A stretch of DNA of 13,453 nucleotides, taken from the IMG/VR virus record IMGVR_UViG_2651869691_000006, positions 1-13,453 of that record; one strand, 5' to 3'. This document shows, piece by piece, positions 1 to 9,697 of the stretch (positions are counted from its first letter, which is position 1; each line of letters begins with the position of its first letter). Position numbers and translations under genes: made by a program. The notes under the pieces were generated by a model that worked only from the letters and a program-made list of their open reading frames with translations, did no database searches and was not told the DNA's origin. The DNA comes from a virus. Its lineage: Duplodnaviria > Heunggongvirae > Uroviricota > Caudoviricetes.

Positions 1-650
<650 letters not shown>

Positions 651-651
<1 letters not shown>

Positions 652-1199
652 TGAGGACGATTGAAGCCATGCAGCGACAACTTCTCGGCCTGATTGGGCG
701 GGCAGTGGTGAAAAGCATCAGTGCCGCCACGAAATGTCAGACCGTGGATGTGTCCCTGATTGCCGGTGAACCCAAAGCCGGGGTTGAACATCTTGAACCC
801 TACGGTTTTACCGCAAGGGCAAACAGCGGTGCGGAAGCGGTGGTGTTGTTTCCGGATGGCGACCGTTCTCATGCGGTGGTTGTTACGGTGTCGGACCGGC
901 GCTACCGCCTGAAAGGGCTGCAGACGGGTGAGGTGGCTGTCTATGACGATCAGGGGCAGTCTGTGACGCTGACCCGGGAGGGGATCGTGGTGGACGGTGC
1001 AGGTAAAACGATCACGTTTCGCAATGCGCCCAGAGCACGTTTTGAAATGGACCTGGAAGTGACCGGACAGGTGAAAGACCTGTGCGACTCCGGCGGCACC
1101 ACCATGTCAGCGATGCGGCTTGCCTATAACGGCCATCGTCACAGAGAGAACGGTCAGGGCAGTAACACCGACAAACCGGATAAAGCGATGGAGGCATGA
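651..1199 (+). CDS. Phage baseplate assembly/spike protein V-like (Mu gp45-like)
   Basis: 182-aa ORF; ATG overlaps the upstream stop; motif ...LQTGEVAVYDDQGQSVTLTREGIVVDG... typical of gpV-type baseplate spike proteins; size and position match Mu gp45. Confidence 0.7.
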
Positions 1200-1624
1200 T
1201 GGAACTGTGGCTGACGGTGAACGGTAAACGCACCTGCGCCAGCGCACCGCTGGATCCGCTGACCCGCGCCGTGGTGATTTCCCTGTTCACCTGGCGGCGG
1301 GCGGAGCCTGATGACAATGCCGACGTCCCGATGGGATGGTGGGGGGATACCTGGCCTGCGGTACAGAATGACCGTTACGGCTCCCGGCTGTGGCTGCTTC
1401 AGCGCGGCAAACTGACCAATCAGCTGGTGCAGACGGTAAGGGGGTATATCCGCGAATGCCTGCAATGGATGATTGATGACGGTGTGGTGTCCCGTATTGA
1501 TCTGGATATCCGCCGCACCGGGATTAATGAACTGGGTAACAGTATCACTCTCTGGCGTCGTGACGGACCGGTAATGATTTCTTTTGATGATCTGTGGAGT
1601 GCGATAACGCATGGCGGACAGTGA
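1196..1624 (+). CDS. Phage baseplate protein, Mu gp46-like (GP46/W-like)
   Basis: 142-aa ORF overlapping the upstream stop by 4 nt (ATGA); size and position between V-like and J-like genes match Mu gp46. Confidence 0.65.
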   Translation: MMELWLTVNGKRTCASAPLDPLTRAVVISLFTWRRAEPDDNADVPMGWWGDTWPAVQNDRYGSRLWLLQRGKLTNQLVQTVRGYIRECLQWMIDDGVVSRIDLDIRRTGINELGNSITLWRRDGPVMISFDDLWSAITHGGQ

Positions 1625-2669
1625 ATTTCAGCGCCCGACGCTGGCAGAAAATATCAGTATGCTCCGTAACGATTTATTCGCCAGGCTGGACGTCAGCGAC
1701 ACGCTCCGGCGCATGGATGAAGACGTGCGGGCAAAGGTGTATGCGGCGGCGCTGCATACGGTTTACGGTTACATCGATTATCTGGCAATGAACATGCTGC
1801 CTGACCTGTGCGATGAGTCCTGGCTGGCGCGACATGCTGCGATGAAACGGTGTCCGCGCAAGGGGGCCACGGCTGCCAGCGGGTATATGCGCTGGGAAGG
1901 TGTCAGCGATGGCCTGAAGGTGACCGCCGGGAGTGTTATTCAGCGCGATGACCTGGTTCAGTACACGGCAACTGCCGATGCAACCAGCGCCGGTGGTGTC
2001 CTGCGCGTGCCGATCGCCTGCTCAAGTGCAGGAGCGGTCGGTAACGCTGACGACGGTACGTCATTAATCCTGGTCACGCCGGTGAATGGTCTGCCGTCTT
2101 CCGGCGTGGCAGACACTCTGACAGGTGGATTTGATACTGAAGAGCTGGAAACGTGGCGCGCCCGCGTCATTGAGCGGTATTACTGGACGCCTCAGGGCGG
2201 GGCTGACGGGGACTATGTAGTCTGGGCTAAAGAAGTGCCCGGCATTACCCGTGCATGGACATACCGCCACTGGATGGGAACGGGGACTGTCGGTGTGATG
2301 ATTGCCAGCAGTGACCTGATTAATCCCATTCCGGAAGAATCAACGGAAACGGCGGCAAGACAACACATTGAGCCACTGGCCCCGGTGGCAGGCTCTGATT
2401 TGTATGTATTCAGGCCGGTGGCGCATAAAGTGGATTTTCATATCCGCGTGACGCCGGACACACCGGAAATACGGGCTGCCATCACCGCCGAGTTGCGTTC
2501 GTTCCTGCTGCGTGATGGTTATCCGCAGGGAGAACTGAAGGTGTCGCGTATCAGTGAGGCGATTTCCGGTGCGAACGGGGAATACAGCCATCAGTTGCTT
2601 GCACCGGCGGACAATATCTCCATTGCAAAAAATGAACTGGCGGTACTGGGGACGATTTCATGGACGTGA
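1611..2669 (+). CDS. Baseplate J-like protein (Mu gp47-like; JayE-like)
   Basis: 352-aa ORF overlapping neighbours on both sides; size and order (V-like, gp46-like, J-like, gp48-like, tail fibre) match the Mu/P2 baseplate wedge. Confidence 0.75.
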
Positions 2670-3244
2670 CAAACGATGATTACATCCATCTGTTGTCGGC
2701 ACTGTTGCCCCCCGGTCCGGCGTGGTCAGCCAGCGATCCGGCGATTGCCGGTGCGGCACCGTCATTAACCCGCGTTCATCAGCGTGCGGATGCCCTGATG
2801 CGGGAGCTGGATCCGCGCACCACCACCGAACTGATAAATCGCTGGGAGCGTCTGTGCGGCCTGCCGGATGAATGTATTCCCGCAGGGACACAGACCCTTC
2901 GCCAGCGTCAGCAACGACTGGATGCGAAGGTTAACCTGGCGGGCGGCATCAATGAGGATTTTTACCTTGCACAGCTTGCTGCCCTGGGCAGACCAGACGC
3001 CACCATCACGCGATACGACAAAAGCACGTTCACCTGCTCATCGGCCTGTACTGACGCGGTGAATGCGCCGGAATGGCGGTATTACTGGCAGGTCAACATG
3101 CCAGCCGCCACCAACACCACCTGGATGACATGTGGCGATCCCTGTGATTCCGCACTGCGTATCTGGGGCGACACCGTTGTCGAGTGTGTGCTTAACAAAC
3201 TCTGCCCGTCGCATACCTACGTAATTTTTAAATATCCGGAGTAA
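2660..3244 (+). CDS. ymfQ: Phage tail protein, Mu gp48-like / P2 gpI-like (YmfQ-type, DUF2313)
   Basis: 194-aa ORF ([22 protein letters not shown]...) directly upstream of the tail-fibre gene; same length and position as YmfQ of K-12 e14. Confidence 0.65.
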
Positions 3245-3247
3245 TCC

Positions 3248-3832
3248 ATGCATCGTATAGACACGAAAACCGCGCAGAAGGATAAGTTCGGCGCGGGTAA
3301 GAACGGTTTTACCCGTGGTAACCCCCAGACCGGCACACCTGCCACCGATCTGGATGATGACTACTTTGACATGTTGCAGGAGGAACTTTGCAGTGTTGTG
3401 GAGGCATCCGGTGCCAGCCTGGAGAAGGGGCGGCATGACCAGCTGCTTACAGCGCTTCGTGCGCTGCTGTTAAGCCGCAAGAATCCGTTTGGCGATATCA
3501 AATCGGATGGCACGGTGAAAACGGCTCTCGAAAACCTTGGTTTGGGAGAAGGTGCTAACTGGGTTATGTTACCTGGAGGAATGATAATTCAGCGTGTTTA
3601 TCTTGGATTTCCTATTGGCACTAATGTAAGACATATAACTTTCCCCCGGTCGTTTACAACAACGAACTATTCCATCTCAATTAACTGGAATGATATCGGT
3701 ACTGTAACAACTGAAACACAATCACCAGCAAATGTGGCGGTTGTTCATCAAACAAAATCATTAACAGGGGCCAGCATCTGGCAGGCAGGTCCCGGGGGAT
3801 TTAATGTGGACATTATAGCGGTGGGGTATTGA
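3248..3832 (+). CDS. stfP: Side tail fibre protein (StfP-like): constant N-terminal part fused to the currently resident variable C-terminal part
   Basis: 194-aa ORF with the widespread prophage tail-fibre N-terminus [47 protein letters not shown]...; the invertase crossover site lies inside it at 3525-3550 (codons ...[11 protein letters not shown]...). Confidence 0.8.
3525..3550. repeat. Left crossover site of a Pin/Hin/Gin-family DNA invertase (26-bp imperfect palindrome)
   Basis: CTCTCGAAAACC-TT-GGTTTGGGAGAA; the left half matches the hixL half-site TTCTTGAAAACC at 10/12 positions; the right half is the reverse complement of TTCTCCCAAACC; located at the constant/variable junction of the tail-fibre gene. 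Confidence 0.7.
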
Positions 3833-3833
3833 T

Positions 3834-4262
3834 ATGTACGTATGGAGCGCTAAAGCAAATGGCTTTTTCCCCATATCGGAGAAAGAAAAATTTGAGGCAT
3901 CAGGTCTGTGGCCTGATGATGGTGTAATAGTCAGTGAGGAAGAACATAAAAAGTTATTTATGGATATTCCACCAGGAAAACAGATTGGAACACTGAATGG
4001 AAAACCAGCACTGATAGATATTCCTCAGCCGACCAAAAAGGAATTAATAGCTATTGCTGAAGTTAAAAAATCCCAATTACGGGAAAAGGCTGACAGTGAA
4101 ATATCCTGGCGTCAGGATGCTGTTGATGCTGATATCGCAACTGATGAAGAAGCTACAACTCTCACCCAATGGAAGAAATACCGTGTGCTGCTGATGCGTG
4201 TTGATACGTCAACAGCACCCGATATTGAATGGCCTACGCCTCCGGCAGTTCAGGCCAGATGA
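3834..4262 (+). CDS. tfaP: Tail fibre assembly protein (TfaP-like)
   Basis: 142-aa ORF immediately after the tail-fibre gene; C-terminus ...DTSTAPDIEWPTPP shares the motif found at the C-terminus of the convergent tfaE-like gene. Confidence 0.75.
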   Translation: MYVWSAKANGFFPISEKEKFEASGLWPDDGVIVSEEEHKKLFMDIPPGKQIGTLNGKPALIDIPQPTKKELIAIAEVKKSQLREKADSEISWRQDAVDADIATDEEATTLTQWKKYRVLLMRVDTSTAPDIEWPTPPAVQAR

Positions 4263-4827
4263 CATCCGGCGCGGTGCTGGTATCTGTTGCCGTCACCGCG
4301 TCAATGTAATCCAGCACGGCGTTAAGTCGGGTTGTTTCTGCCTGAGTCAGTTTCCGTCCGGCCTGTAATTTCAGCTGAATCAGACTAATGGAAGCCATTG
4401 CTGCATCAATCAGTGACTGGCGCTGTGCTTCTGCCGCGTCTACTGCGGCACTGTGTTGTGCCTCAGTGTCTGTCACCCATTTCTCACCATCCCATTTATC
4501 GTATGGCGTTAACGGTGAAAGCGTGACATAACCGTCTTTGATGGCACCGATATAATCCACTGTAACAGCTGCACCATTTTCGATTGAGTAAACAGTCTCA
4601 TTGCGATGGTCTTCCTCATGGCTCCATCCCTTACCTGTAAATACCGTCACTCTTCCCGGAATGTTTTCGCCCGGGTCAATACCAGTTGAACAGGCGGGCA
4701 TACTTACGCCAGTATTAATATATTCATCAGACCAGCCCGTATACTCAGATGTTTCAGCATCATAATAAAAACAACGCATATCGCCCGGCACTGTAGCCAG
4801 CCCATTTTCATCAAAAACAGGTTTCAT
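4234..4827 (-). CDS. tfaE: Tail fibre assembly protein (TfaE-like), alternative copy inside the invertible segment
   Basis: 197-aa minus-strand ORF; C-terminus ...DTSTAPDVIWPELPEA; 3' end overlaps tfaP by 29 nt on the opposite strand; start overlaps the stfE stop (TAATG). Confidence 0.75.
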   Translation of the reverse strand: MKPVFDENGLATVPGDMRCFYYDAETSEYTGWSDEYINTGVSMPACSTGIDPGENIPGRVTVFTGKGWSHEEDHRNETVYSIENGAAVTVDYIGAIKDGYVTLSPLTPYDKWDGEKWVTDTEAQHSAAVDAAEAQRQSLIDAAMASISLIQLKLQAGRKLTQAETTRLNAVLDYIDAVTATDTSTAPDVIWPELPEA

Positions 4828-5309
4828 TATTTAGCCCTCACCAGAAAGTTAAATGCAATATTTCGCGGTCTGACAGCAACAAAATTCACACCATCACCCA
4901 CAGAGTTACTGGTGAAATTAAATCGTGAAAATCCTGGCTGATTTCCGGCGATGCCATCATGAAAGTTAATTGCGTGTCCCGCACCTTCGCCTATATTCCC
5001 GGCAAACTGAGAAAAGTTTGTAGCTGCCTGCCAGCTTAATAATTCGCGACCACCATCTGCACCTCGCCCGTCATCCCAGACACGAATGAAATCACCGCGT
5101 GCGTCAGGTAATGCCAACGCCGGAAACACTTTCGCCAGCACAGGGTAATCAGTGGCAGAAAATTTCGCCCCGTTGAACTTCAAAAACACCATACTGGACC
5201 AGCTGTCGATTACAGTATTTGGCATTGCAGCGGACGCCCAGAAGAACGGAACGCCAATAGCTGGAGCACCTTCTCCCAAACTGCGATGGCTCACTGCTGA
5301 TATGTGCAA
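4827..5309 (-). CDS. stfE: Alternative tail-fibre variable C-terminal domain (StfE-like), promoterless; expressible only after inversion fuses it to the stfP constant part
   Basis: Minus-strand frame open from 5321 to the stop at 4827-4829, with no ATG near its 5' end (TTG at 5309); begins ...HISAVSHRSLGEGAPAIG..., sharing the LGEGA junction codons with stfP. Confidence 0.65.
   Translation of the reverse strand: MHISAVSHRSLGEGAPAIGVPFFWASAAMPNTVIDSWSSMVFLKFNGAKFSATDYPVLAKVFPALALPDARGDFIRVWDDGRGADGGRELLSWQAATNFSQFAGNIGEGAGHAINFHDGIAGNQPGFSRFNFTSNSVGDGVNFVAVRPRNIAFNFLVRAK
5265..5293. repeat. Right boundary repeat of the invertible segment: inner half-site only
   Basis: AGCACCTTCTCCCAAAC at 5265-5281 is the exact reverse complement of 3540-3556; beyond it (TGCGATGGCTCA) neither the core dinucleotide nor an outer half-site is recognisable. 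Confidence 0.6.
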
Positions 5310-5503
5310 TCGACGGGGAGTTCAGGATCAAGCGATATCGGACTCATCCTCAACACCACCTGATTAATTTGGAGAGCGGGAGAAGGGAGATGCTACCAGT
5401 AGATGATGACGGTTACGGTTCTGCTCCCGCGATATTCGGGGTGATTACTTACATCATTAATGATGCGAGGAACGCGGAGTTTGATGATTGTCCGGTGATG
5501 TAA

Positions 5504-6172
5504 TCATATTGGCGTTATTAGTTCGGCGCCCTGATTTTTCACATTCCCGACGGCACGCGTTACGGCGTGCCATATAAATTTATCAGCCGGTACAACACCG
5601 TCGGCTGCAATTTCCGCTGCTTCTTTCCCTCCAACATCCTGCCTCATCCATTCACGCGCGGCTTCCGGTAGCAGTACCAGTGGTCGTCTGTCGTGAATAT
5701 CAACCAGTCCTTTGTCAGCTGCAGCTGTAACTATCAGGAAACCTTCTGCTTCATCTCCACGTTCGAATGGTGTGCTGCCGATCGCCGCCATAAAAATCGG
5801 CTGACCGTCTGCCCGGTGAATAAAGTAGGGTTGTTTTTGGTCGCCTTCCTTTTTCCACTCATACCATCCATCAGCAAAGCAAATTGCGCGGCCATGCTGC
5901 CAGAGTGGTTTAAACATTCTGCTGGTGGCAGCAGTTTCAGACCGTGCATTAATGAGCGGCGGTTTATCCCACCAACCGGGGGCGTATCCCCAGATAACTG
6001 GATCAAGATGCAACTGCTCATCACGTTCGCTCAGAAGCAGAACTTTTGTTCCTGGCGCTACGTTGAATCTTCCGATGGGTTCTGGATCGTATGGAATATC
6101 GCGTTCTGATTCATCAGCGAGAAGGGCAAGATAATCTTCACGGGTCATTGACTGTGAAAAGCGTCCACACAT
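5504..6172 (-). CDS. SOS-response-associated peptidase (SRAP, YedK/HMCES family; abasic-site processing protein)
   Basis: 222-aa ORF starting MCGRFSQS (conserved Cys2 nucleophile of the SRAP/DUF159 family); GGAGG Shine-Dalgarno 5 nt upstream of the ATG. Confidence 0.8.
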   Translation of the reverse strand: MCGRFSQSMTREDYLALLADESERDIPYDPEPIGRFNVAPGTKVLLLSERDEQLHLDPVIWGYAPGWWDKPPLINARSETAATSRMFKPLWQHGRAICFADGWYEWKKEGDQKQPYFIHRADGQPIFMAAIGSTPFERGDEAEGFLIVTAAADKGLVDIHDRRPLVLLPEAAREWMRQDVGGKEAAEIAADGVVPADKFIWHAVTRAVGNVKNQGAELITPI

Positions 6173-6406
6173 AGAAACCTCCAGCCGTATGTCAGACTGA
6201 AAGTATAGGGCAGTTAGAAAAAGTGGTGCACACCGTTAAAGATTTAAAAGGAGCATGTAAGGTAAATCGGAATGATGGTTTTGTGAATTGATGAATTCCG
6301 AAAGTGAAAAAGATACTTAATCATTGTGTGCTAGCGATACGGGGGCAACATTTGACGGGGTTTTTCCCCTGTAATTCCCCATTGCTTCCCCGTTCAGAAA
6401 ACAGGC

Positions 6407-6431
6407 AAAAAAACCAGCCGTAACAGGCTGG
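6407..6431 (-). terminator. Rho-independent terminator (minus strand) within repeat copy 1
   Basis: On the minus strand: CCAGCC-tgttac-GGCTGG hairpin followed by TTTTTTT. Confidence 0.7.
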
Positions 6432-6446
6432 TTCTTCGAGGATTTT

Positions 6447-6491
6447 TGGTCGGCACGAGAGGATTTGAACCTCCGCCCCCCGACACCCCAT
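6447..6491 (-). pseudogene. tRNA-Pro 3' fragment (anticodon loop to CCA end), not a complete tRNA
   Basis: Reverse complement reads AUGGGGUGUCGGGGGGCGGAGGUUCAAAUCCUCUCGUGCCGACCA: T-arm GGAGG-UUCAAAU-CCUCU, acceptor 3' strand CGUGCCG, discriminator A, CCA. This matches from memory the 3' half of an E. coli proline tRNA (anticodon loop AUGGGGU). No 5' half is present upstream. Confidence 0.65.
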
Positions 6492-6569
6492 AGTGTCGTG
6501 CTAATATTCTGATGGCCTATATGCGTCTACAGTAAGTTGATAGCATCATTCGTCGGTCGCTTCGTAGTC

Positions 6570-7385
6570 TCACATACGGATAAAATTTTTTCTATTGATT
6601 TTGTCTCTATCAGAGCCATAAATGATGGTTGCAAAAAAACGACCTAATTCAAGATGGTGGAAGTGATTATCTTTTGCTTGAACTGTCATTGAGTCTAATA
6701 TGTTATAGATGCATTCTATGATATGAATAACTAATAAAGTGCGATAACCAGCAAGCATTTCACTTCTTTTAAGTAAATAATTTAAATCCCCTGCAGAGTT
6801 TATATGGTTTCTGTCTTCATCATAATATCCAAGCACATAGCATGGCAGTGTTTCACCATAGCTTCGGTATTGCTCGCATTTTTTATCAATTATATTTTTT
6901 TGTCTTTTTGTTAATATTTTATCGTAAATGCTCTTATCGATTTCATTATACCATTGCTTCATGGGATCATTGTCGTTGTCATTAGTAATGAAATCAATAT
7001 TACTATATCTTGATGAATTTGCAAAATTAGTTAACAACTCCATCACTCTGTAGTGAATTTCATTTAAGCCAGAGGGAGAATCAACTCTCTCAATGACTAG
7101 GTTGAATAACTTGCTTAAGTTATGACCGTAATCTCTTAATTTTTTGCGTGATGTATATTTTCCATTTTTATTATAATCATCAAGCATAAGGCAAAGTTTC
7201 ATAAGCCTTTCTAATCCTAAACTGATGCCGGATAATGCTTGAAAATACAATCCTCTACTTGCAAAATTTGCTTTCCTTAGGGAAGTGAGCCCTATGCCTA
7301 ATAATTGTCTTGAAAAGTCAACCTCATCAACAAATCTTCTGTATTTTTCATCCATAAAAACCTCAGTCAGCCAATTAATATTCAA
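6570..7385 (-). CDS. Hypothetical protein, 271 aa, AT-rich horizontally acquired cargo gene; function unknown (candidate defence/abortive-infection-like)
   Basis: Long minus-strand ORF in a region that appears strongly AT-rich by inspection, in contrast to flanking DNA; Lys/Asn/Ile/Tyr-rich protein; contains KLRDYGHNLSKL (R-x3-H); followed by the terminator in repeat copy 1. Confidence 0.7.
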   Translation of the reverse strand: MNINWLTEVFMDEKYRRFVDEVDFSRQLLGIGLTSLRKANFASRGLYFQALSGISLGLERLMKLCLMLDDYNKNGKYTSRKKLRDYGHNLSKLFNLVIERVDSPSGLNEIHYRVMELLTNFANSSRYSNIDFITNDNDNDPMKQWYNEIDKSIYDKILTKRQKNIIDKKCEQYRSYGETLPCYVLGYYDEDRNHINSAGDLNYLLKRSEMLAGYRTLLVIHIIECIYNILDSMTVQAKDNHFHHLELGRFFATIIYGSDRDKINRKNFIRM

Positions 7386-7577
7386 GAATGATTTCTATAA
7401 AGAACTAATCTAGTTAAATCATCTGATGTAATTAGTATTACAATACCATCAGACGACATTGAAGCAGTATTGTGCCTTATCTACCCTATGTACGTCCATT
7501 GATAAAAATCTGCGCTTTTCGCAGTGGGGTCAATCGTAAGCTAATTTCCCCATTGCTTCCCCGTTCAGAAAACAGGC

Positions 7578-7603
7578 AAAAAAAACCAGCCGTAACAGGC
7601 TGG
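7578..7603 (-). terminator. Rho-independent terminator (minus strand) within repeat copy 2
   Basis: Same CCAGCC/GGCTGG hairpin followed by an 8-T run on the minus strand, positioned downstream of the 322-aa gene. Confidence 0.7.
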
Positions 7604-7618
7604 TTCTTCGAGGATTTT

Positions 7619-7662
7619 TGGTCAGCACGAGAGGATTTGAACCTCCGCCCCCGACACCCCAT
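7619..7662 (-). pseudogene. tRNA-Pro 3' fragment (copy 2), acceptor stem mutated (CGUGCUG)
   Basis: Reverse complement reads AUGGGGUGUCGGGGGCGGAGGUUCAAAUCCUCUCGUGCUGACCA. Confidence 0.6.
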
Positions 7663-7858
7663 AGCGGTGATCTACCTTCTCATCAAGGGTAACCATGTGC
7701 CAGAAGCAGCCCTTGCGCACATTGGATGGGTATCAAATAATGAAGTAGGTCAACTTTATTAAATAAAATTGTGTTGGTTCAGATGATCGAATGGGAATGA
7801 ATAGTTTATTACTTTTGGTGACCGCAAGCGCGATCACCTTCGATTTGGTGGCAATTAC

Positions 7859-8827
7859 CTAGAATGATGCACAATCTTTAAGCTCTTTTTCTAGTTGTTC
7901 AACCAAGTCACAGCATTTTTTGATAACATCTTTAACTGACTCTGAATCTAACTTATGAAAATTACCATTTTTTGTTTTACCTGCTCGATGAACTAAGTCA
8001 TGCCTAATTAACACGCTTTTATAAACTTCTGTGAAAACAGGGAATTTAATACCAAAGGTATCTCGATACATGCCACTTACTTTTGGCAGATTATGATAAA
8101 GAACACTCTTCATAGACTCTATCGCTTGAGACTCTATTTGTTCATGCCTTATAAATAATTCAGAAAGTAAGAATTTTTCTGTATTGTAATCTTTGAAGGT
8201 TTCAACAAAATTTCTCAAATTAGTTTGGCTACCATGAATTAGGGAAATAAATCTGTCACATAAATATGTTTCCAAGGAAGTTATTGTATTGGCATATAGC
8301 ATATACGACATTTGTATTTGTAAAGTGCTATCAATTTTTAACTGAGCATCATTTAGTTTTATGGCGTTCTGCATACTATTTTGGAATGTCATATAGACAT
8401 CTCGTTCAGATAGCGTTCGATCATCAGAGTACTGCATATCAATAACATCTAGAATGCGCTGTTCAATTAATGAAGGTCTATTCAACTGTAATATATCTAT
8501 AGTCGCATGTCCTCGCTCAGTTAAACCTTCTAAATATCCATTTTTATTTTGTTTTATATGTTCTGAAAAACTTTCATTTAAAGGATTTAGAAGTAATGGT
8601 TTGCCATTTTCATCGAGAGGAAACTGATCTTTTTTAATCATGCTACATGCCTTACAAGCGATGAGCAGGTTGTCTGTAGCATCTTGGAAGTCAGTATACT
8701 TTGATTTTGGGAAAAAACGATCAACATCCGCCATCAATGGTTCATAAAGTTTAGTGCCACAGTAAGCACATTGATGCTTAAACTTCTCCCATAGTTCAAG
8801 TTTAAACGTTTTATAATTCTTATTCAT
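7859..8827 (-). CDS. Hypothetical protein, 322 aa, AT-rich cargo gene: N-terminal HNH-like zinc-ribbon domain with non-canonical catalytic positions plus C-terminal domain with an R-x4-H motif (candidate nuclease/defence protein)
   Basis: N-terminus has C20-x2-C23 ... D36-R37-FFPKS ... N53-LLIA-C58-x2-C61, the spacing of an HNH motif but with Arg where the DH histidine normally sits; C-terminus contains IRHDLVHRAG (R275-x4-H280); region appears AT-rich by inspection. Confidence 0.7.
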   Translation of the reverse strand: MNKNYKTFKLELWEKFKHQCAYCGTKLYEPLMADVDRFFPKSKYTDFQDATDNLLIACKACSMIKKDQFPLDENGKPLLLNPLNESFSEHIKQNKNGYLEGLTERGHATIDILQLNRPSLIEQRILDVIDMQYSDDRTLSERDVYMTFQNSMQNAIKLNDAQLKIDSTLQIQMSYMLYANTITSLETYLCDRFISLIHGSQTNLRNFVETFKDYNTEKFLLSELFIRHEQIESQAIESMKSVLYHNLPKVSGMYRDTFGIKFPVFTEVYKSVLIRHDLVHRAGKTKNGNFHKLDSESVKDVIKKCCDLVEQLEKELKDCASF

Positions 8828-9271
8828 TGAATAGTTCCTTTATATTCTTGACTTGATTGTTTGTTTGCCAATTTAAGCCAAAGACACACGACTTTAATTG
8901 GGCTTGAATCATAGTTATATGTAATCTATTAAGCAAACACTTTTCATTAATAGCATGAGATAACGCTCAATTCTTTATTTTCCGGGAGTGTGTAACTTCA
9001 TATCCACCTCTCACTCACAGCGTACGTTATTGGCGAAAAATTTAGTTAAGCCATTGATAGTTTGTGAAAACACGCATGATTTAAAATCCCTTTGCCGTGA
9101 AGGGGCTGATAGGTACAGGCACTTGTTTTTGCCCTCTAAAACGGTTATCAAAACCAAAAAACATACATTGATAATCAATAGGTTAGGGGAAAGATAAAAG
9201 CCAGTTGATTTACAATAAAATTATAGGATTATTTTTATTTATCATGCGGTTGTATATGAACCATCTAACTA

Positions 9272-9436
9272 CTGCTGCGCCATATGGGCTGGACTGAAGC
9301 CGCAGACCTGATTGTTAAAGGTATGGAAGGCGCAATCAACGCCAAGACCGTAACCTATGACTTCGAGCGTCTGATGGAAGGCGCTAATCTGCTGAAATGT
9401 TCAGAGTTTGGTGACGCGATCATCAAGAACATGTAA
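9272..9436 (+). pseudogene. icdC: icd 3'-terminal fragment (icdC): displaced original 3' end of isocitrate dehydrogenase, marking prophage attR
   Basis: Translates in frame to [54 protein letters not shown], the C-terminus of Icd; no upstream icd sequence (in-frame TAA at 9266-9268). Confidence 0.85.
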
Positions 9437-9460
9437 TCTCTACATGTGTTAAATATTGAA

Positions 9461-9488
9461 ACGGGCGTATAACACGCCCGTTGTTTTT
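9461..9488 (+). terminator. Rho-independent terminator of icd
   Basis: ACGGGCGT-ataac-ACGCCCGT hairpin followed by TGTTTTT. Confidence 0.75.
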
Positions 9489-9697
9489 ATAAATATGTTA
9501 ACCGTTATAAAATAACGTATCAAAAGTCAAGTGAACACATTTCAAATATCAATTTGATCGTATTGGTCTGGTGATTATTTATGGGGAGCAATAAAAAGAC
9601 AGTATTAATCATCCATAGGGATGGTCTCTGCACTTTTATTTCCATTATGCTAATGCCTTACTGAATTATGAAGCATTTCTTAAGCTCCCAACTTTAG

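Follow-up and report, generated by a model that had tools for sequence, protein, structure and literature searches.

The window analysed here, a stretch of 13,453 nt of E. coli chromosome, forms the attR end of a prophage that resembles e14 and is integrated at icd. Mu-type baseplate, tail-fibre and tail-fibre-assembly genes occupy positions 1–5309 and are followed by the SRAP gene, the ORF under study (hereafter the target), an HNH gene, the icd 3′ fragment, ycgX, bluR and bluF. The features at and around the target are:

5504..6172, minus strand: SRAP (SOS-response-associated peptidase) gene, a phage gene normally abutting the tRNA-Pro att site.
6375..6493, minus strand: repeat A, a relic tRNA-Pro attachment site downstream of the target (from tRNA-Pro comparison and folding).
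6570..7355, minus strand: coding sequence of a 261-aa solo protein of predicted HEPN fold, with an ATG start and a TGA stop at 6570–6572 (from homologue starts and RefSeq).
7356..7385, minus strand: ten-codon TTG extension of the mechanical ORF, non-coding (conserved in no homologue; RefSeq begins at the ATG).
7356..7430, minus strand: upstream block of ~75 nt travelling with the gene, presumed to be its own promoter and 5′ UTR (from cross-locus DNA identity).
7510..7524, minus strand: weak second terminator-like hairpin between repeat B and the upstream block of the target (−6.7 kcal/mol, z −2.45).
7546..7664, minus strand: repeat B, a second relic copy between the HNH gene and the target (terminator hairpin at 7580–7609).
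7859..8827, minus strand: gene of a 322-aa HNH endonuclease with a PtuB-like N-terminus, a neighbour outside the target unit (from annotation and HMM searches).
9269..9436, plus strand: icd 3′ fragment, marking attR of the e14-like prophage (from annotation, coordinates transferred from locus L001).

The order xis-int-[icd′]-HNH-target-SRAP-tail fibres was found in many draft genomes and is the vegetative phage order; the HNH and target genes therefore form an att-proximal accessory region corresponding to the b region of lambda. When int-side and ycgX-side versions were aligned, the icd′ segment was common to both and they diverged just past the icd terminator. In K-12, e14 carries mcrA at the place held here by the target and the HNH gene. 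An integrated phage should be split at attP, yet draft contigs of 0.3–1 Mb (loci L031–L033, L035 and L036) kept the unsplit order xis-int-icd′-HNH-target-SRAP; tandem lysogens, assembly through excised circles or integration elsewhere are possible explanations.

Two further observations concern the rest of the window. Inverted tail-fibre and tail-fibre-assembly segments lie at 4234–5503 (compared with 4121–8973 of locus L001), and no pin invertase, DinI or umuD-like genes are present between the fibre genes and SRAP. In strain C1 the same interval holds pinE, DinI and an S24 peptidase pseudogene, and the SRAP gene is split by IS421; an invertible fibre switch may be frozen in the phage of the window. 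Between the icd fragment and ycgX, positions 9450–9598 (minus strand) gave a sub-threshold Rfam match to the Hfq-binding sRNA STnc150 (26.5 bits against a gathering score of 60, E 0.007).

A first-pass annotation of this DNA had described the target as a 271-aa gene. A 271-codon ORF with a TTG start does exist (6570..7385, minus strand), but the protein is 261 aa long and starts at the ATG at 7355. The coding sequence was placed at 6570–7355 because MDEKY or its equivalent forms the N-terminus in 22 of 22 aligned homologues, because DNA similarity between loci runs through this ATG, and because the RefSeq annotation is the 786-nt version encoding 261 aa; GAGG lies 6 nt upstream of the ATG (7361–7364). 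The AT-richness noticed by eye was borne out by a GC content of 31.8% (GC3 28.6%), as against 55.2% in the tail module and 45.5% in the whole window. At the composition of the target, stop codons make up ~7.6% of random codons and the arithmetic chance of a 271-codon open frame is ~5 × 10−10 per start, and the target is therefore not a chance ORF. Pairwise dN/dS was 0.06–0.09 against the window copy and 0.15–0.20 for pairs with unsaturated dS; judged from these ratios, the gene is real and under purifying selection. Pseudogenisation, named earlier as a finding that would count against the gene, is contradicted by the same range of dN/dS (0.06–0.2) and by full-length homologues of 259–267 aa.

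The label “orphan” had to be abandoned. Homologues sharing 40–100% identity formed 26 clusters at 90% identity, with the full-length members noted above, and came from E. coli, Klebsiella, Pectobacterium, Xenorhabdus, Proteus, Pantoea, Aeromonas and Pasteurellaceae. In a profile search of 1.84 billion representatives, the family comprised at least 1132 clusters at 50% identity with E ≤ 1e-3 (643 with E ≤ 1e-10), and nearly all of the best 150 of these at least 1132 clusters were 250–285 aa long. No Pfam domain was found in the best 120 matches of a second profile search. A genome-contig scan yielded a single Gallibacterium locus, tblastn of a phage collection gave no match to the target, and a literature search found no paper naming the family or testing any member.

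That no family could be recognised was confirmed for the HMM libraries Pfam, PADLOC, PHROGs and NCBIfam, and PADLOC-DB 2.0 returned no family for the target at E ≤ 1. Remote homology searches and structure prediction, the checks proposed in the first-pass annotation, pointed to a HEPN fold. The window protein matched PF05168 (HEPN) weakly over residues 75–124 (E 0.17, 12.5 bits). P0017, which is 61% identical to it over the full length, scored above the cut-off (25.5 bits against 22, E 1.6e-5), with its residues 76–169 aligned to profile positions 52–116. When 138 diverse relatives were compared with Pfam, only HEPN_AbiV (three members) and HEPN (two members) were matched more than once, all below threshold. 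The AF2 model of the target (pLDDT 88.3, pTM 0.89) was an all-alpha, up-down helical bundle of the HEPN type, with extra helices and a beta-hairpin in the C-terminal ~130 residues. Foldseek searches of PDB and BFVD with the target gave no significant match, and profile searches of PDB sequences with alignments of 58 and 138 sequences gave chance matches only. From the profile scores and the predicted model, we conclude that the target is probably a HEPN-superfamily protein belonging to a family covered by no curated library.

Conservation among the 138 diverse members was then read against the model. R50, Y117 and W135 were invariant, and E11, G22, G47, E49, K53, H78, L108, F111, R116, N119 and P131 were conserved in at least 90% of the members. 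E49, R50 and K53 lie in helix 2 (34–64) of the model, so that the acidic/polar helix 2 residue of HEPN proteins has counterparts in the nearly invariant E49 and the invariant R50; H78 lies between helices 34–64 and 99–113. R116-Y117-x-N119 occupies the loop after helix 3 (99–113), where canonical HEPNs carry Rx4-6H. This canonical motif is absent: from R116 on, the window protein reads R-Y-S-N-I-D and the family consensus RYYNLD, no histidine stands at +5 to +7 of R116, and D121 takes the histidine position.

The R-x3-H singled out in the first-pass annotation, KLRDYGHNLSKL, is present and its histidine (H78) is conserved, but R75 is replaced by lysine in most homologues. Within KLRDYGHNLSKL, invariance among close homologues is confined to G77-H78, and this pair is at least 90% conserved family-wide. 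R75-x3-H78 was ruled out as a degenerate HEPN motif on this ground; the R-x3-H is therefore coincidental, and the right histidine had been picked for the wrong reason. Anantharaman et al. (PMC3710099) describe for AbiV and the AF0298 family a site that retains the basic residue but lacks the motif histidine; instead, another conserved histidine is supplied by an insert between helices 2 and 3. The target family has the same features, with H78 in the helix 2–3 insert at least 90% conserved and R116 retained. Going by conservation and the model, H78 may pair with R116 and the invariant R50 in a composite site of the AbiV/AF0298 style.

Whether homologues lie next to prophage ends or in defence islands had been raised as a further check, and P2-like, P4-like, hsdS-X-hsdR and plasmid-island loci were all found. 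Two loci are in P2-like prophages: the Proteus homologue follows ogr at the prophage end, and the Klebsiella homologue is flanked by gpS and gpV. A P4-like satellite (with Psu, Delta and AlpA genes) carries a homologue in the accessory region flanking its primase gene. The copies of the P2-like phage, the P4-like satellite and the window are 79–81% identical. In Gallibacterium the arrangement is hsdM-hsdS-X-hsdR, the homologue overlapping the end of hsdS, and in Pasteurellaceae the homologue is a single-gene insert, aspS-X-nudB, 29 nt from aspS. A distant relative adjoins dGTPase and NACHT genes on 84 mostly conjugative plasmids (IncF), another relative adjoins an ApeA-HEPN gene and cas1, a Streptomyces relative lies near an OLD-type ATPase and IS elements, and on one metagenomic contig a relative has an unremarkable context. 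Neighbouring genes were unrelated to each other across the loci and no neighbouring ORF was conserved. The target gene travels alone between defence hotspots, and this company favours a defence role.

A conserved partner gene was also considered and rejected, since the convergent downstream genes of the P4, P2 and Proteus loci were unrelated to one another, to the HNH protein and to SRAP. Each of these genes encodes 220–286 aa without a Pfam match (P4 satellite, L025 2440–3102; Klebsiella P2, L028 9014–9874; Proteus P2, L011 8856–9560), and one has several predicted TM segments. They may be further cargo or defence genes.

The two ~120-bp repeats reported to flank the gene are direct repeats of ~119 nt at 6375–6493 and 7546–7664, spaced 1171–1172 nt from start to start and nearly identical, differing by one mismatch and two 1-nt indels. 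Each comprises, along the minus strand, the 3′-terminal ~47 nt of tRNA-Pro (similarity continuing more weakly on the 5′ side), a terminator and ~32 nt more; in repeat A, the tRNA-Pro 3′ part lies at ~6447–6493, the terminator hairpin at 6408–6437, and the remaining ~32 nt are phage-specific. Folding of each repeat gave a 12-bp hairpin followed by U7–8 (−17.5 kcal/mol, z ~−4.5, 0 of 200 shuffles as stable), and each AT-rich gene therefore ends in its own strong intrinsic terminator. The earlier term “terminator modules” thus held for the hairpins and fell short for the repeats as a whole, which are relics of a tRNA-Pro (proL-type) phage attachment site and now act at least as terminators.

A related prophage of strain 100181 has integrated at the real tRNA-Pro gene, beside yejM, and there ~330 nt from SRAP to the anticodon region are collinear with repeat A of the window. 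Repeat positions 33–117 were matched at 88–90% under the tRNA-Pro gene of ordinary E. coli genomes; the relic therefore copies the 3′ half of the bacterial tRNA together with its native terminator, as an attP that rebuilds the gene on integration would. The long form of the relic is present in 72 E. coli genomes. A T>G change in the T-arm is common to both window copies and to a third copy in strain ZJ3920; this third copy, flanked by DUF262/DinI′ and a GIY-YIG gene, belongs to a related prophage that has ssrA as its integration site. The copies are therefore dead relics of common descent and not working tRNA parts. The repeats hold only the 3′ ~47–60 nt of tRNA-Pro, with the common T>G change, and no complete cloverleaf; ARAGORN found no tRNA gene in them and Rfam no tRNA match at E ≤ 1.

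The upstream block, the gene and one relic copy make up a unit of 1171 bp, which seems either to have been inserted into a relic attachment site or to have arisen by duplication of one. Among 5426 complete E. coli genomes, none was found that carries the HNH gene and lacks the 1171-bp insert, and present-day mobility of the unit through the repeats is therefore unsupported. In related prophages, the dead tRNA-Pro attP relic punctuates the cargo region at three integration sites (icd, ssrA and tRNA-Pro), and copies beyond the window were found at L039 4001–4108 and L002 6001–6307. The pattern suggests an exchange of integration modules in which the old att was retained as a terminator.

The results support the target as a genuine, independently transcribed and horizontally acquired gene. 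On balance we think it rather probable that it is att-proximal prophage cargo (a “moron”) encoding a solo HEPN RNase of ~260 aa for abortive infection or phage exclusion, and that the repeats mark the 1.17-kb gene unit as an insertion into the relic attachment site. The gene would be cargo of the att-proximal accessory region, expressed from its own upstream control region, and constitutive expression in the lysogen would yield a latent RNase, probably dimeric and metal-independent. H78, R116-Y117-x-N119 and E49-R50-x2-K53 would together form the active site of this RNase, and the C-terminal ~130 residues are a candidate for the sensing or autoinhibitory part. Infection by another phage, through one of its components or consequences, would switch the RNase on, and cleavage of tRNA, rRNA or mRNA would stop translation before progeny are released. 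This mechanism is proposed because of the analogy with AbiV, HepS and PrrC, from which we infer the RNase activity, dimerisation, trigger and abortive outcome. Six of eight randomly chosen unknown-gene loci in P4 hotspots protected against phages in a 2026 study (PMC13586616), which raises the prior for the target as a defence gene. Against this reading stand the absence of canonical Rx4-6H, the lack of a matching PADLOC model and the housekeeping surroundings of some homologues (aspS-X-nudB and the one metagenomic contig).

An alternative that we regard as unlikely but worth weighing is that the protein has a HEPN fold without being a defence nuclease. It would then bind RNA or nucleotides without catalysis, act as a regulator, or serve in counter-defence or superinfection exclusion to the benefit of the phage, satellite or plasmid that carries it. 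The missing histidine of Rx4-6H would then be explained, and the phages and satellites on which the gene rides also carry anti-defence genes. However, E49, R50, K53, H78, R116 and N119 are invariant or nearly so at positions which HEPN nucleases use, and AbiV, reported without a strictly conserved Rx4-6H family-wide, is an active RNase. The contexts in hsdS-X-hsdR and in chromosomal and plasmid defence islands are, moreover, on the host side.

On another reading, the target is the toxin of an addiction (toxin-antitoxin) module that mainly stabilises the mobile element, with an unannotated antitoxin such as a tiny ORF or, as proposed for abiV2/AbiV, an RNA from the conserved upstream block. The DNA upstream of the gene was compared across loci. 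The ~75 nt upstream do travel with the gene across P2, P4 and e14-like loci: identity over −1 to −60 was 62% to the P4-satellite, Klebsiella P2 and IMG/VR loci (~50% background further out), and the block was 76–79% identical between the P4 and P2 loci. It contains the GAGG Shine-Dalgarno sequence at 7361–7364 and a conserved ATCAGATGATTTAAC box, and no consensus sigma-70 site was scored in it. AbiV needs an inhibitory upstream RNA (abiV2), and the window has an ORF of 25 aa at 7382–7459 as well as a strong upstream hairpin. Nevertheless, the block appears dispensable, being absent where the gene overlaps hsdS in Gallibacterium and where it lies 29 nt from aspS in Pasteurellaceae, and an obligatory upstream RNA partner of the abiV2 type is therefore unlikely. 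The window hairpin was not conserved in the other loci, nor was any neighbouring ORF. A repeat antitoxin like that of ToxIN/AbiQ was ruled out as well, since TRF found no tandem repeat over 6100–7900. An addiction module is improbable in our judgement.

A two-gene system, in which the target would be one half in E. coli and the 322-aa HNH protein the other, receives still less credence from us. The same eight of 5426 complete E. coli genomes carry both genes, so that in E. coli the target is so far found only together with the HNH gene; contig counts in a large collection are about equal (~470 each), and the genes have similar GC and, as was noted at the first pass, the same orientation. The co-occurrence is, however, explained by a single prophage lineage, its copies being 99.4–99.8% identical. 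The terminator-containing repeat said to separate the genes is indeed there, repeat B with its −17.5 kcal/mol hairpin being joined by the weak hairpin at 7510–7524, and a relic att copy of its own bounds each gene. Homologues 79–81% identical occur in P2, P4 and other loci without the HNH gene nearby, six other kinds of context in all lacking such a neighbour, which agrees with the earlier view of independent modules. No profile similarity was found between the HNH protein, including its C-terminal domain, and the target family. The N-terminal half of the HNH protein is PtuB/Septu-like (PADLOC E 1e-23) and also type IV REase-like; for its C-terminal half (residues 144–316), the sole matches were one to an unknown PHROG and a weak one to RiboL-PSP-HEPN (E 0.011). 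The protein may thus combine HNH and HEPN domains in a fusion, at the position that McrA holds in e14.

That the ORF is spurious or in decay and has no function, as the extreme AT content and the lack of a match in four HMM libraries might suggest, has a negligible probability in view of the dN/dS of 0.06–0.2, a length kept at 259–267 aa, the 1132 related clusters at 50% identity and the confident fold prediction.

If the target proves protective against phage, it would represent a widespread single-gene HEPN system missed by PADLOC, Pfam, PHROGs and NCBIfam, in a family spanning Enterobacterales, Pasteurellaceae, Aeromonas, Streptomyces and many metagenomes. Carriage of the 79–81% identical gene by a P2-like phage, by a P4-like satellite and by an e14-like prophage unrelated to them would then be a concrete example of defence cargo that shuttles among mobile elements in competition with each other. 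It would also offer a tractable case of HEPN catalysis without the Rx4-6H histidine, and of sensing and killing within one polypeptide. If the protein is inert, the target is an ordinary prophage cargo gene.

Among known systems, AbiV is an rRNA-degrading HEPN RNase conferring phage resistance in Lactococcus. The target resembles AbiV (PF18728 HEPN_AbiV; PDB 9bj5) and AF0298-type proteins (PDB 2hsb) in the arginine after helix 3, the alternative helix 2–3 histidine and, for AbiV, a phage-resistance context; one E. coli member of the target family is named “AbiV family” by UniRef. In contrast, the window protein has no PF18728 match at E ≤ 10, and three of 138 relatives match it below threshold (E ≥ 0.004). 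The target is ~60 residues longer, with an extra C-terminal helical region, and L. cremoris AbiV has 91-RNHKSKH-97 and needs the upstream abiV2 RNA, whereas the upstream region of the target is not universally kept.

PrrC is an RNase embedded in a type I R-M operon; its gene sits between hsdS and hsdR in the prr locus, as the Gallibacterium homologue does. By this likeness to PrrC/RloC, the homologue would be a latent RNase that a restriction system holds in check or that serves as its back-up. Unlike PrrC and RloC, the target has no ABC-ATPase N-domain, its fold family differs in detail, and most members lie outside R-M operons.

HepS of the Gifsy-1 prophage of Salmonella is a single HEPN protein in which the sensor and the effector of abortive infection are combined; on binding a tail-tip protein, it cuts the anticodon loops of tRNAs (PMC13043305). 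As a solo HEPN carried as prophage cargo, it is the best functional analogue of the target. It differs in having the canonical R100-x4-H105, absent from the target, and in being a tetramer triggered by the tail-tip protein J; homologues longer than 250 aa were excluded from the HepS family, and the target is 261 aa long.

The target family also resembles the hotspot cargo of P2 and P4 (Rousset 2022, PMC9122126; PMC13586616) in that its members sit at variable cargo positions in P2-like phages and in a P4-like satellite, although the target matches no PADLOC model for the systems named there. The near-identical cargo common to P2, P4 and an unrelated prophage agrees with the “shuttling” described (PMC13586616), and a position at the att-proximal end of an e14-like prophage is shared with the McrA/Lit cargo of e14. 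Tentatively, and with some doubt, we suggest that the target is the first to be recognised from a large family (at least 1100 clusters), invisible to databases, of solo HEPN-like nucleases acting in abortive infection, with a putative non-canonical R50/H78/R116 site and a built-in C-terminal sensor, moving as a promoter-plus-gene cassette between P2-like, P4-like, e14-like, plasmid and type I R-M hotspots, for which the relic tRNA-Pro att copies are possible landing pads in this phage group. We would place the target within the known theme of abortive infection by HEPN proteins, as a variant at the level of a new family; this reading is plausible and open to testing, and not categorically new.
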